Below, one piece after another: positions 6,942 through 26,775 of a DNA stretch of 29,790 nucleotides (its first letter is position 1; every line of letters starts with the position of its first letter). The stretch is from a virus, in UHGV virus genome UHGV-1477313. The stretch is one strand, 5' to 3'. Below the pieces are notes generated by a model. That model was not told the DNA's origin, ran no database searches, and was given only the letters and a program-made list of their open reading frames with translations. The position numbers were made by a program, and so were the translations under genes.

Positions 6942-6953
6942 GTGACATGTCAC
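6942..6953. repeat. 12-bp perfect palindrome GTGACATGTCAC, copy 1 of 3
   Basis: Exact copies at 6942..6953, 24499..24510 and 26764..26775. This copy overlaps the stop codon of the 98-aa membrane protein gene. Confidence 0.6.
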
Positions 6954-7246
6954 GTCCCTTTTCTGAATGATAGCCATTCGAAAAATGATGACATTCCACC
7001 GCAGACAATAGCAAAGATTATCCCACCAAAGAATAGAAGGCCAGCCTGCCACCACTCCCACCGCCATACATCCACAGCGCCAACCATACCAACAATCGCT
7101 CCAACAAATGGAATATAGCTCACGATGAAAGCAATGGGGGCTGCAATTATCCAGTGCAATCCCCACCATGATTCAAGCCCAGCCATAATTGCTGCCAACT
7201 GAAAAAGACCAACGACGATATAAACAATGAATCCTATAGCTTGCAT
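6950..7246 (-). CDS. Small integral membrane protein (98 aa, 3-4 TM, Trp-rich), last gene of the structural operon
   Basis: AGGTGA SD 5 nt before the ATG; strongly hydrophobic translation. Confidence 0.65.
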   Translation of the reverse strand: MQAIGFIVYIVVGLFQLAAIMAGLESWWGLHWIIAAPIAFIVSYIPFVGAIVGMVGAVDVWRWEWWQAGLLFFGGIIFAIVCGGMSSFFEWLSFRKGT

Positions 7247-7250
7247 GTAG

Positions 7251-7433
7251 TCACCTATTTACCCAATAAAAAATAAGAGGCCTCCCCTCAATAAGGCTTG
7301 CAACAAGAACTACTCCCTGCACAACAAAGATGAACCAACAAATAGCTTGAGTCTGAGGGTTAAGAAAATATTTGTAGCGGTCAATAAATAACAATCCACC
7401 AGAAATTATCACACTCAAAATAATAAAAAACAC
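7251..7433 (-). CDS. Small membrane protein (60 aa, 2 TM)
   Basis: GTG start preceded by AAGGAAG; hydrophobic translation; 9-nt gap from the upstream gene. Confidence 0.5.
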   Translation of the reverse strand: MFFIILSVIISGGLLFIDRYKYFLNPQTQAICWFIFVVQGVVLVASLIEGRPLIFYWVNR

Positions 7434-7442
7434 AACACTTCC

Positions 7443-9917
7443 TTATTGCGGAGTGACATCCTGAGGTCTCCACCAGTATGTCTGGTTAAACTCTTTCTTC
7501 GAACGTTGCTCCATTTTTCGCAAATAGCCTGGTGAAAAATACTCCTGCATCTGGTTAAAGATCATGTGATCGAGAGCCGCCTTCAAGTACCAGAGATTCG
7601 CACCAGGCATCAGGCCTTTCCCCAGCTTAACCAGATCACCACCAGTCTGCTCATTCTTCCCTTCCACAGCATTTAACGGTATGCCCTGAGCAATCTTCAC
7701 TACGTCATCAACCAGACCAGCTACCGGGCCAAGCATCGACGCCAGCGCGCCGCTTCCGTACCTAGTGTGATCTGACAATAAAAAGTCACCGTAAAGGCCA
7801 AGACCACCACCTTTCAGTAGAGCACCAAGCCAAAATTTAGCAGCATCTTCTCCTGTCATCTCGCGAGGATTACGACCAGACGCAAGGTCGTTAAGTTGCT
7901 GCGACAAAGCGCCAAGAATGGTCGTACTGGCAATAAACGTCGCAATATATGCCGCACGCCCACCAGCAGACGGCATCCCCATAGCGCGTGACCAGTGACG
8001 CATAACCACCGAGATAGGGAACGATTTAAACAGGAAAACACTTCTCGTTAATTCACCTTTCCATGTTCCACGCTGAATACCAGAACCGGTTATCAGTTGC
8101 TCACGTGCTCCCGGTGTAATAACAGCCATATCAACTTCTTCAGTTACGGCACCGAGCAGTTTACGCATTGCCTCAAATTTCACGCGTTCAGGCTCACCAA
8201 GATGTTTAACTGCTGAATCAGGGATACGCATAATGCTTTCCGGTGTCAGCATCGTATTATTACCGTTCCCCCAGTCCTCCTGTTGCGCCAGCTTCCATAC
8301 GCTCCAGTCTGTGTCAGTAATCCCTTTGCTTTTCAGGATACGAAAATCAGAGTCATCGAGGCTACGAAGGTCTGGTGTCCGTGACACTACTTCTCCCAGG
8401 CTTCCCATCATGGTTACGCCATAGGCGCGCTTGTGCGCATCTGACCATGCTGTAAGCCCACTGGCACGCATTACCGCCGTTGCCGCCCAACGAGACACTG
8501 ACGGCCCCATATTATCCATCGCCCAGCGGTTAACGCTGCCAAGTAGAGATTCCATCGCCAGACCAGCGCGGCGCGCCCGCGCAAGTTCTGTACGGTTCGT
8601 TGGGTCCATAGCTTCAAGCTGGTTGCGGAATAACTGGTTCATTGGAAGGTTGGTCACCTTCGCAGACAGATACATGGTTCCAAGATCAGAGAACGATGAT
8701 AGCAACGCAGATCCGAGTCTGCTGGCAACCAGCCAGTTGCGGATATTGTCAGACCATCGCGCGATGTGCGGATTCGCTACAGGCTGTGTCTTTCCGGAAA
8801 TAAAGTTGTACAGATTCTCTGTGTTGTTCGCCAGCCGCTCGACTTTACCGGTTTTACTCGGGTTAGCTGTTGCCGTTTCTGCCTTCACCTGATCAAGAAG
8901 AGAGCGGAAAACATGATCGGGGTTTGGGCCATATGTTTCCACCAGTGCAATATCTTTACTGATACCTTCCAGGTGACCGACCATGATTTCCCATAGAGAG
9001 CGATCGCCATAAAGTTGCTGATATTGCAGATAGGAATCTGCATCTTTGAAATGTATCTGTCGTGATGCATTACCACGGTTAGCACGTGCGCCGGAAATTC
9101 GCATTCCGGTATCAGTAAGCTTATTCAGCCCACCAGTAGCGATCGTGTTATAAGCCTCTCCAAGAAATGCAGACAACTCGGCATCGTTCATCAGTTGTCC
9201 ATCGGCTCGGATATAATATTTGCGATCCAGCTTACCTATAACATCGCTAACCCACTTATCCTTTGATACCGCCCCAACCTTTTCCATAGAATGATGTTGA
9301 GGGAACCCCCAGTTTTCGAGATAGCCAATGTCCCCACCAGCATCATTAAACCGGCGGCGCAGTAGATCTGTCACTTCTCTCCACGCCTTAGCACCTTTTC
9401 TTGCTTTAGCATTGCCAGTATTTTGCCCTCGCATTTCATATACCAGGTCACGTACGCCCGCTTCATCTTCAAACAGACCAAAAAAGCGAGGATCAACTGC
9501 TTCGAATGCCTCCTGCAATTGACTCAATGCATAATCACGAGTGGCTTTTGTTCTGGACTCAACAGAGAGGAAATTCGATTTACCGTCTGCATTAAAAGCA
9601 ATAGTACGGTTAAGAGCGCCAAGTTTCCCATCAGCCCCTTGATAGCTATTGATAAATTTATCCAATCTCTGACGTGCGGCTATAGTGAGGGCCACACGAC
9701 GTTTCTTTAATGCCGCTTCTCGCTGTAATTCTTCAGATGCCAATTGTGCTGCACGATATAGCCGCTCTGATTCGGAAAGTTGTCTCCACGACATCGGGTC
9801 ATCACGAGCAATGGAGCGCATATTTCGATAAATGCGGTCTTCAATGCTCTGTATTTCTCGCGCCGTTAACGTGCGCTGCGCCGCCTGCTGGACCGCTTGT
9901 ATACATTCCTGTCTCAT
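7443..9917 (-). CDS. Large virion-associated protein (824 aa), probable internal/ejection protein
   Basis: Long ORF inside the structural operon with an SD before the ATG. Function inferred from position only. Confidence 0.7.
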   Translation of the reverse strand: MRQECIQAVQQAAQRTLTAREIQSIEDRIYRNMRSIARDDPMSWRQLSESERLYRAAQLASEELQREAALKKRRVALTIAARQRLDKFINSYQGADGKLGALNRTIAFNADGKSNFLSVESRTKATRDYALSQLQEAFEAVDPRFFGLFEDEAGVRDLVYEMRGQNTGNAKARKGAKAWREVTDLLRRRFNDAGGDIGYLENWGFPQHHSMEKVGAVSKDKWVSDVIGKLDRKYYIRADGQLMNDAELSAFLGEAYNTIATGGLNKLTDTGMRISGARANRGNASRQIHFKDADSYLQYQQLYGDRSLWEIMVGHLEGISKDIALVETYGPNPDHVFRSLLDQVKAETATANPSKTGKVERLANNTENLYNFISGKTQPVANPHIARWSDNIRNWLVASRLGSALLSSFSDLGTMYLSAKVTNLPMNQLFRNQLEAMDPTNRTELARARRAGLAMESLLGSVNRWAMDNMGPSVSRWAATAVMRASGLTAWSDAHKRAYGVTMMGSLGEVVSRTPDLRSLDDSDFRILKSKGITDTDWSVWKLAQQEDWGNGNNTMLTPESIMRIPDSAVKHLGEPERVKFEAMRKLLGAVTEEVDMAVITPGAREQLITGSGIQRGTWKGELTRSVFLFKSFPISVVMRHWSRAMGMPSAGGRAAYIATFIASTTILGALSQQLNDLASGRNPREMTGEDAAKFWLGALLKGGGLGLYGDFLLSDHTRYGSGALASMLGPVAGLVDDVVKIAQGIPLNAVEGKNEQTGGDLVKLGKGLMPGANLWYLKAALDHMIFNQMQEYFSPGYLRKMEQRSKKEFNQTYWWRPQDVTPQ

Positions 9918-26060: not shown

Positions 26061-26653
26061 TGATTACCATCCTGACGTTCTTTGAGTCGCTTCCTGGCTG
26101 CTGCTATGCGATCAGCAATTGTCACATTCACATTAACATCCAGACGTTCTTTGAACGCGTTGACATCAACATGCTTACCAATCAGCTCAAGGTTCTTCAC
26201 CTTGTCAGGCCATTTAATTTTTTTGAGGATTGTCTCTATCGAATCCTCGTTCATGTTCATGATGGTCGATGACAGATCAAAGCCGCTAAGCGTAGTGCGC
26301 CAGATTTTCGGCCACTCGCGGATTGGTTTAAGGCTCCCATCGTCGTTGAGGATGTCGATCACGTCCATCTGGTCGATCTCCACCAGGCGCATGAGAACGT
26401 AATCAGCACTGACGCGCATTCGTTTGTTGCGCTCCTCCATCAACTCAGCAATCCGTTTTTGAATGCGTTCATCGCGCATCATGACACTGGCTTTAACTGC
26501 CGCTGTATTTGGGGAGAATCCTGCGTTAATCGCTGCCTGAGTCTGGTTTTCAGGCGTTTTGATGTATGACTGGCAATAAGCCTCCTGCATTGCTGTTAGT
26601 GGCTTAAATTGCGTTGATTTGCGTTTATAGGTTTTAGGTTCAGCAGGCATCAT
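26057..26653 (-). CDS. Terminase small subunit
   Basis: Region KPLTAMQEAYCQSYIKTPENQTQAAINAGFSPNTAAVKASVMMRDERIQKRI looks like small-terminase DNA-binding domains. Likely start is ATG 26653 (MMPAEPK); the ORF track's TTG extension to 26731 is probably not translated. Confidence 0.75.
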   Translation of the reverse strand: MMPAEPKTYKRKSTQFKPLTAMQEAYCQSYIKTPENQTQAAINAGFSPNTAAVKASVMMRDERIQKRIAELMEERNKRMRVSADYVLMRLVEIDQMDVIDILNDDGSLKPIREWPKIWRTTLSGFDLSSTIMNMNEDSIETILKKIKWPDKVKNLELIGKHVDVNAFKERLDVNVNVTIADRIAAARKRLKERQDGNQ

Positions 26654-26670
26654 AACCACCGTGGTAATAG

Positions 26671-26685
26671 TTACCGTTGTGGTAA
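26671..26685. promoter_or_regulatory. Operator-like dyad TTACC-gttgt-GGTAA inside direct repeats GTGGTAATAGT (26661..26671 and 26679..26689), just upstream of the terS start
   Basis: Read directly. Confidence 0.4.
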
Positions 26686-26763
26686 TAGTACCATGCAAAA
26701 TAAAGCCGCCATAGTTGGCGGCAGTATTCAAAACCCGTCAAATTCATCATGCATAATCTACTC

Positions 26764-26775
26764 GTGACATGTCAC
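26764..26775. repeat. 12-bp perfect palindrome GTGACATGTCAC, copy 3 of 3
   Basis: Exact match; overlaps the stop codon of the 26772..27110 gene, about 110 bp upstream of terS. Confidence 0.6.

Follow-up and report, generated by a model that had tools for sequence, protein, structure and literature searches.

UHGV virus genome UHGV-1477313, the 29,790-nucleotide stretch of DNA analysed here (the window), is a prophage of the phiV10/epsilon15 type (Uetakevirus). The majority of its genes are on the minus strand, and it carries three copies of a 12-bp palindrome, GTGACATGTCAC, at the ends of transcription units. These copies belong to a conserved 14-bp signal, Y-GTGAC-NN-GTCAC-R, that is coupled across unlike phages to the genes of one protein family, the epsilon15 gp49/N15 gp46 family (PHROG 536), a member of which ends at one of the three sites. 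We regard it as virtually certain that the element is functional. The gp49-family protein is probably its binder, judging by the co-inheritance of gene and motif and by the symmetry of the site, and a role of the bound protein as a transcription roadblock or boundary at operon ends is put forward tentatively. The reading that we favour as a whole, in which the palindromes are candidate sites of a gp49-family protein acting as a roadblock or boundary, is plausible though far from assured.

Exact-match scanning of the whole window found GTGACATGTCAC exactly three times, at 6942-6953, 24499-24510 and 26764-26775 (sites 1, 2 and 3, none of which has a strand); there were no copies with one or two mismatches elsewhere in the window, and an exact copy was present in 0 of 100 dinucleotide-preserving shuffles of it. 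The long structural operon has site 1 at its 3' end, where the palindrome overlaps the TGA (6950-6952) of the minus-strand open reading frame (ORF) 6950..7246. Site 2 is situated between two convergent genes, terL (24585..26060, minus strand) and a plus-strand gene resembling Sf6 gp66 (24123..24494, with a match to Pfam PF13876), the stop of which is 4 nucleotides before the palindrome. Site 3 overlaps the TGA (26772-26774) of the gp49-family gene (26772..27110, minus strand; ORF 26772..27113) at the end of the early-right operon, approximately 110 bp upstream of terS. Terminator-like hairpins stand beside the three sites at 6924-6941, 24517-24532 and 26705-26722, respectively. An earlier note on this DNA had reported the three copies, had judged that such a 12-mer is expected far less than once in 30 kb, and had placed each copy at a gene end and next to a hairpin, with two copies overlapping a minus-strand TGA; all of these observations are confirmed by the scan, the shuffles, the ORF coordinates and the hairpin positions given above.

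The palindrome recurs at the same three syntenic positions in four related phages, phiV10, epsilon15, SPN1S and Tyrion (the third phiV10 copy with one mismatch), which rules out chance. The counterparts of site 1 are found at 19493 in phiV10, 19517 in epsilon15, 19662 in SPN1S and 20377 in Tyrion, and those of site 2 at 2262, 2142, 2174 and 2702, respectively. The possibility raised in the earlier note, that the motif might be absent from all related phages, is thus clearly contradicted. The intergenic DNA flanking the sites differs between the window and these four phages, and the major capsid proteins of epsilon15 and SPN1S share only ~43% identity with the one encoded in the window. Among 80 close relatives drawn from IMG/VR, 75 of 79 have an exact site 3 and 57 of 64 an exact site 2, with a single mismatch in the remaining 7; a near-match within coding sequence (GTGACATGGCAC/GCGC), which served as an internal control, drifts freely among the same relatives. 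Because the GenBank records of phiV10 and Tyrion open inside site 3 (GTGA / CATGTTAC and GTGACA / TGTCAC, with the slash marking the break), a linear scan overlooks the third copy. Physical genome ends or a cos site at site 3 were considered and rejected: the phiV10 record simply breaks where its last gene stops, at the stop codon, and Tyrion has been reported to be circularly permuted, so that the ends of its record are not physical ends (PMC5754475). SPN1S also has a copy with one mismatch at 26722-26733, GTGACATGTCAT, over the TGA of Rz at the end of the lysis operon, perhaps a fourth operon-end site in degenerate form; the window does not extend to the corresponding region.

The rules that the element obeys were derived from 5.07 Mb of gene-bearing loci, in which GTGAC-N2-GTCAC was observed 453 times against 4.8 expected. 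Spacers of 0, 1, 3, 4, 6 and 7 bp and the everted arrangement were at or below background, and a spacer of 5 bp was slightly above it (13 occurrences). The half-sites are invariant in all 210 distinct site contexts, over which the two central bases vary (AT, GC, CA/TG, AG/CT, AC/GT and CC/GG); at the ends of family genes the centre is AT, CT, GT, TT, AC, TG, GG or GC. The flanks are symmetric, with a pyrimidine at position -1 in 96% and a purine at position +12 in 96%, and there is no information further out. Invariant half-sites, a free centre and symmetric flanks together are the signature of recognition by a dimer. A sigma-70 promoter with GTGACA as the -35 element was considered and set aside, since the matches are weak (9/12), the -10 element is inconsistent in the window and, by eye, the pattern is absent at N15-type sites. 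Separately, 11-mers with a single central base (GTGAC-N1-GTCAC) occur in lambda-type tail genes (lambda 9747 and 19010, Chlobot 34832); the two in lambda compare with ~0.05 expected and probably reflect coding conservation.

The gene that ends in site 3 has relatives in phages of very different kinds, with tblastn identities to the window protein of 86% in Chlobot (lambdoid), 57% in the Pantoea myovirus AH07, 41% in Yersinia P2-like phages, 35-37% in the telomere phages N15 and phiKO2, and 31% in Vibrio K303-like phages. In AH07, a Yersinia phage and N15, GTGAC-NN-GTCAC spans the stop codon, always in the register xxG TGA C but each time with another central dinucleotide, and in Chlobot it lies 6 nucleotides past the TAA stop. 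IMG/VR and phage records yielded 275 family genes, of which 250 have the motif at the gene end: in 236 it starts 1 nucleotide before the stop and in 14 it starts 8-9 nucleotides after it. These 250 genes stem from Uetakevirus-like, Pantoea AH07-like, N15-like and Yersinia P2-like phages. In a set arranged by bacterial species, the motif was in the -1 register in 21 of 27 species. The neighbourhoods of the gene are diverse (beside xis/int in AH07 and Chlobot, after gene A in P2-like phages), and no other gene is common to the compared phage contexts that carry it. We conclude that the element, found at the ends of one family's genes across unlike phages that share no other gene, travels with the gp49-family gene. 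Conversely, lambda, P2, P22, BcepC6B and Vibrio MZH0603 (five phages, 209 kb) have neither a family gene nor the motif, and two of these, BcepC6B and MZH0603, are structural relatives of the Uetakeviruses that share the capsid lineage of the window phage. What was found is therefore a symmetric site with conserved half-sites that is co-inherited with a protein gene, and of the three explanations offered in the earlier note, that of binding sites for a regulator is the best supported, although binding itself is inferred from this coupling to one protein family and from the dimer-like symmetry.

The family extends over Uetakevirus, N15-like telomere, P2-like and lambdoid prophages of Escherichia, Salmonella, Klebsiella, Yersinia and Pantoea, with more distant members in Vibrio and Aeromonas phages. 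NAR688 likewise carries the family gene with its site; the protein called 'gp46' in the proteome of the NAR688 lysogen is a cB-like repressor in that paper's numbering and is distinct from the gp49/gp46 family (PMC12042878). A general role of the protein as a late activator or Q-like antiterminator was rejected, since the gene contexts vary and N15, AH07 and Chlobot have separate Q genes. Several lineages hold sites at further places. The N15-like phages (~45 loci) conserve GTGACTGGTCAC inside repA despite surrounding synonymous drift, and they keep GTGACC(A/C)GTCAC between gene 33 and the terminator before the antirepressor genes, in an operon leader, where the central dinucleotide changes from CA to CC and the half-sites are unchanged (N15 locus positions of the two sites, 14235 and 9548). 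In K303-like Vibrio phages a site lies ~20 nucleotides upstream of terS and none lies at the stop of the family gene. A contig of the alphaproteobacterium Limoniibacter endophyticus carries an N15-type family gene, 80% identical to N15 gp46, with a GTGACTGGTCAC site, which could be contamination or an unexpected host.

The product of the family gene in the window is a 112-amino-acid protein (PHROG 536, E 7e-54), for which no Pfam family and no sequence relative in the PDB was matched; PHROG 536 is widespread and bears just the generic label 'transcriptional regulator'. Its N-terminal arm is basic and arginine-rich (AERKAAQRARQ / AERQRIRREKLKK) and is followed by a stretch that aligns with the strand-helix-helix of YbfE, and its C-terminal module contains four conserved cysteines, of which C79, C82 and C91 are invariant and C99 is present in at least 90% of sequences. 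An hhalign comparison with E. coli YbfE, annotated in RefSeq as a ribbon-helix-helix protein, gave an E value of 0.0034 over 53 columns, but a probability of only 9.6%, and the NCBIfam YbfE model recognized two divergent family members weakly (E 0.05-0.08). On the basis of these weak matches we predict that the protein forms a dimer with the ribbon-helix-helix fold and has a Cys4 module at its C-terminus. It would resemble known repressors of this class (P22 Arc and Mnt, plasmid CopG and omega) in being a small dimer with a short palindromic site in a phage regulatory context, near antirepressor and accessory islands. Those repressors, however, bind promoters upstream of the genes that they regulate, whereas the sites described here are at the 3' ends of genes and operons by terminators; the assignment of the gp49-family protein to the class is, moreover, weak.

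The palindromes are separate from the terminators that they adjoin. The gap from the palindrome to the G+C-rich terminator-like hairpin is 0, 6 and 41 nucleotides at sites 1, 2 and 3, respectively (terminator scan), and in RNA folding the palindrome makes only its own mini-hairpin of 4-5 bp, apart from the terminator stems. U-runs follow the terminator stems only, and the palindrome has no T-run of its own, so the neighbouring hairpins have the G+C-rich stem-loop and direct U-run of an intrinsic terminator and the palindrome does not. The suggestion in the earlier note that the palindromes are parts of bidirectional terminators is, in that form, not supported. Abutting site 1 is an intrinsic terminator (6914..6941, minus strand; terminator scan and RNA fold) consisting of the stem-loop AGGCCGCTTTCGCGGCCT at 6924-6941 followed by TGTTTTTAAC, which stops the minus-strand transcripts of the structural operon; counterparts are annotated in phiV10 (19505-19522) and epsilon15 (19531-19556). 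The hairpin beside site 2, CCAGCCGATGAGCTGG at 24517-24532 (feature 24517..24543, plus strand), was flagged on both strands by the terminator scan, with RNA folds as further evidence; its plus-strand T-run (ATTTGTTTTA) is good, whereas the minus-strand one (CTGTTTGTGA), which runs into site 2, is weaker; the terminator annotated in phiV10 at 2238-2257 is its counterpart. At 41 nucleotides downstream of site 3, the terminator scan and RNA fold placed an intrinsic terminator, GCCGCCAACTATGGCGGC and TTTATTTTG (26696..26722, minus strand; hairpin 26705-26722 with the tail TTTATTTTGC), which forms the border between the early-right and terminase operons and has a homologous stem-loop in the annotation of epsilon15 (39646-39672). 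Sites 1 and 2 show a constant order of palindrome, hairpin and T-run, so that the hairpin separates the palindrome from the main T-run and the palindrome lies between convergent units.

Read along the minus strand, the layout is as follows: the early-right operon ends at ORF 26772..27113 and is followed by site 3, the terminator at 26705-26722 and an operator-like TTACC-N5-GGTAA at 26671; terS and terL come next, then the terminator at 24517-24532 and site 2. After site 2 there is a small accessory island with genes on both strands, and then an operator-like site at 23512, from which the long portal-to-injection operon runs down to 6950 and is followed by site 1 and the terminator at 6924-6941. 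Beyond that terminator lies a second island with Bro-N antirepressor-like and YafO-like genes. This layout of transcription units implies that the three palindromes mark the 3' ends of three consecutive units, and a boundary role fits the anatomy, with all three sites at transcription-unit 3' ends and beside terminators.

We propose that the gp49-family protein, as the last product of the early-right operon, would bind the three sites as a dimer and block RNA polymerase. At site 3 the protein would occupy the end of its own gene, so that polymerase would halt without having copied the stop codon, which would amount to negative feedback; the same occupancy would keep the early and terminase operons apart. 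At sites 1 and 2 the protein would sit opposite the T-run side of the hairpin, between convergent units, and complement a one-directional terminator, such that palindrome, hairpin and T-run would as a unit stop transcription from both directions. The combined effect of the sites would be a mutual insulation of the terminase and structural operons and the variable islands of accessory genes. In nearly every case the site begins no more than 10 nucleotides from the stop codon, as would be expected if the roadblock had to cover the 3' end of the protein's own gene. The sites in repA, in the antirepressor leader and upstream of terS in other lineages are compatible with the proposal as ordinary roadblock or repressor sites. 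A comparable arrangement exists at lacI: operator-bound LacI reportedly truncates lacI mRNA, and SsrA tagging follows (Abo et al., EMBO J 2000). In both cases the site of a DNA-binding protein would lie at or just past the 3' end of its own gene, with a truncated mRNA and feedback as the predicted outcome on the phage side. In the lac case, however, this is a side-effect of the operator of a neighbouring operon, whereas the site over the stop is the conserved core of the arrangement in at least four phage lineages.

Several points weigh against this reading. The fold assignment of the gp49-family protein is weak: the AlphaFold2 monomer has a predicted local distance difference test score (pLDDT) of 60, with helices at 30-43 and 52-77, and a Foldseek search of the PDB with this monomer returned no fold match, although a poor monomer model is expected of an obligate dimer, which the ribbon-helix-helix fold requires. 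Transcripts that run in the late direction through sites 1 and 3 meet the palindrome ahead of the hairpin, so that a roadblock there would stall polymerase within the preceding gene, at a cost for the last gene of the structural operon. The repA and antirepressor-leader sites of N15-like phages and the terS-upstream sites of K303-like phages are not at operon ends, and such positions fit a general repressor or roadblock rather than a boundary specifically. Finally, the loci were collected by means of the gene, so that the evidence on the converse, that the motif implies the gene, and on whether the motif abounds in the host chromosome, as the earlier note asked, comes from the five control phages together with 16 kb of E. 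coli sequence. By chance alone, a genome of ~5 Mb would hold ~4 matches to the GTGAC-NN-GTCAC core outside prophages and ~0.3 copies of the exact 12-mer.

Among the alternatives, an organization resembling that of MatP and matS, in which the phage protein or host MatP bridges or positions phage DNA or keeps MukBEF off it and transcription control plays no part, is unlikely, although several observations speak for it. MatP, which organizes the Ter macrodomain, is present in Enterobacterales, Vibrio and Aeromonas, and nearly all of the family members found come from these taxa. Several dispersed copies of the site occur per genome in Uetakevirus, N15-like and K303-like phages. The half-sites are identical to those of matS (GTGAC[AG]N[TC]GTCAC, with the E. 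coli consensus GTGACATTGTCAC; PMC3603311, PMC8669397), and the window site is GTGACATTGTCAC minus one central base. Vibrio phage K303 even has, at 6769-6781 over the stop of a small gene, one true matS-type 13-mer, GTGACACCGTCAC, beside three 12-bp sites. On the other hand, all three window sites have a 2-bp spacer and not the 3-bp spacer of the 13-bp matS, and the 13-bp spacing is not enriched in the gene-bearing loci (2 against 4.8 expected). Since a change of 1 bp in the spacer normally abolishes binding by a fixed dimer, host MatP would be unlikely to bind these sites. The candidate binder does not resemble a MatP homologue either, as hhalign found no similarity between the family and E. 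coli MatP (probability 0.1%), and many Yersinia P2-like and AH07-like phages have a single site, which cannot bridge within one genome. If the phage protein is a ribbon-helix-helix dimer as predicted, it would resemble MatP, which contains a domain of that type (PMC12756933), but it is smaller and has a Cys4 module instead of the four-helix bundle and coiled coil, and one of its sites overlaps the stop codon of the putative binder's own gene. True matS is reported to be absent from 500 prophages (PMC3603311), so that a version with the shifted spacer would be orthogonal to the host system. In a related scheme, which we consider improbable, phages of bacteria that possess MatP would have in the gp49/gp46 family and its sites a private, site-specific DNA organizer, a counterpart of MatP/matS with a shifted spacer, with which they would fold, position or shield their DNA, for example from MukBEF.

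It is likewise improbable that the element acts at the level of RNA, as a transcribed hairpin that the protein would bind through its basic N-terminal arm and Zn module, so as to influence the adjacent terminator (anti- or pro-termination) or how the following gene is translated, in spite of the arginine-rich N-terminus of the protein and the 4-5 bp mini-hairpin into which the RNA folds. In units that end with a good T-run, the site is transcribed just ahead of the terminator hairpin, and in N15, Chlobot, K303 and some prophages it ends 0-10 nucleotides before the Shine-Dalgarno sequence of the next gene, as such a role would have it. But the hairpin is very weak, and the strand symmetry, which is perfect and includes the Y/R flanks, would be needless for an RNA made from one strand. 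Across the 210 contexts the stem is invariant, the 'loop' is variable and there are no compensatory changes in the stem, which is the opposite of a structure-only RNA signal and typical of the recognition of duplex DNA.

Recombination offers a further explanation, in which palindrome and terminator exist as homology or as a target for cassette exchange, after the manner of the 'boundary sequences' of lambdoid phages, the short conserved sequences at phage module junctions of the linker hypothesis. As in the lambdoid case, the conserved islands here comprise the palindrome and the adjacent terminator, 40-59 bp in all, amid non-homologous DNA and unrelated genes, and homology between unrelated neighbours does break at the element. 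In the comparison with phiV10 the sole homology in 6000-7439 is a 59-bp island at 6896-6954 containing the terminator and site 1, and with Tyrion the island spans 6916-6954; its right edge is thus at 6954, 1 nucleotide outside site 1, in two independent comparisons. The islands around site 2 span 24482-24536 (against SPN1S) and 24492-24531 (against Tyrion), and three unrelated reverse-strand genes, one in the window and phiV10, one in SPN1S and one in Tyrion, stop exactly 4 nucleotides from the site. Gene and site also occur together in contexts as different as lambdoid, P2-like, N15-like and podovirus genomes. The earlier note's proposal of a boundary that promotes recombination therefore holds insofar as mosaic junctions abut the islands of site plus terminator, and fails insofar as the motif is also conserved without mosaicism and is not confined to module junctions, as in repA of the ~45 N15-like phages and within a Q-like gene of AH07. 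The junctions on the island-1 side fall past the terminator (6896, 6916 and 6923) and not at the palindrome, no recombinase is associated with the element, and, in contrast to lambdoid boundary sequences, it obeys strict rules for half-sites, spacer and flanks and is tied to one gene; half-sites that never change, a centre that is free to vary and a spacer fixed at 2 bp point to protein recognition rather than mere homology. Promotion of recombination is more likely a by-product than the function, because any selected island in variable DNA becomes a crossover point and shows junctions, which do not reveal its purpose, and because the motif is conserved inside genes as well; as an account of why the element exists, we consider the linker explanation decidedly improbable.

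It is very improbable that the palindromes themselves are bidirectional terminators or parts of them, a pac or packaging signal, or the site of some host factor that has nothing to do with the phage protein, even though they adjoin terminators and both site 3 and the K303-like site lie shortly upstream of terS: they fold apart from the terminator stems and have no U-run, the gene-site pair is also found in N15-like phages, P2-like phages and the lambda-like Chlobot, all of which package by cos, so that the gene-end site is not a pac signal, and enterobacterial phages without the gene also lack the motif. Among host factors, SlmA binds a 12-bp palindrome with the same 5+2+5 layout and the same outer GTGA...TCAC (consensus GTGAGTACTCAC; PMC3020112), but 4 of the 12 positions differ, with CATG here and GTAC there at positions 5-8, and the C/G at positions 5/8, which is invariant in our element, is G/C in the SlmA site. 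The element is thus neither a matS nor a SlmA site, but it may work like one.

Other features of the window surround the three sites. Island 1 (5258-6918) contains, all on the plus strand and converging on site 1, a Bro-N antirepressor-like gene (5258..5953), a gene for a YafO-like toxin (6198..6674; PF13957, E 2e-8) and a gene for a small membrane protein (6733..6918; PHROG 14503). On the structural side of site 1, the region from the site to the last large structural gene (6955-7439) holds ORFs of 98 (PHROG 3075) and 60 amino acids and is a variable cassette without a counterpart in phiV10, where a gene for a 46-amino-acid membrane protein stands. Four TTACC-N5-GGTAA palindromes lie in the window, upstream of the tailspike gene (4974-4988), inside island 1 (6020-6034), upstream of the portal operon (23512-23526) and upstream of terS (26671-26685), and they match the repressor-binding sites (ATTACC-N5-GGTAAT) annotated in the RefSeq record of epsilon15; the late operons each seem to open with a repressor operator, and three units end with GTGACATGTCAC. 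The mechanically called terS ORF, with a TTG start at 26731 (the start also annotated in phiV10), includes the strong terminator hairpin and the operator-like site; the true start is probably the ATG at 26650 or 26653 (within the region 26650-26731), which fits the N-terminus of epsilon15 terS, MPAEPK.

The records of epsilon15, phiV10, SPN1S, Tyrion and N15 have no feature annotated at the palindrome, and in the literature searched we found no paper on the exact 12-mer or on a matS-like site in a phage. What would be new here is a putative regulator together with its candidate sites, in an unusual architecture in which a site lies over a stop codon and has matS-like half-sites. PHROG 536, an uncharacterised family, gains a precise candidate DNA site and a testable role, and the 14-bp motif is useful as a marker of operon ends and cassette junctions in these prophages. 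Its near-identity to matS raises the question of whether phages copy, evade or compete with the system by which the host organizes its chromosome; if the family and its sites were indeed a phage-private counterpart of MatP/matS, the spacer shorter by 1 bp would keep the phage organizer orthogonal to the Ter macrodomain of the host, which prophages otherwise refrain from imitating. If, instead, the roadblock model is true, a site over the gene's own stop codon would combine compact autoregulation with the insulation of neighbouring operons.

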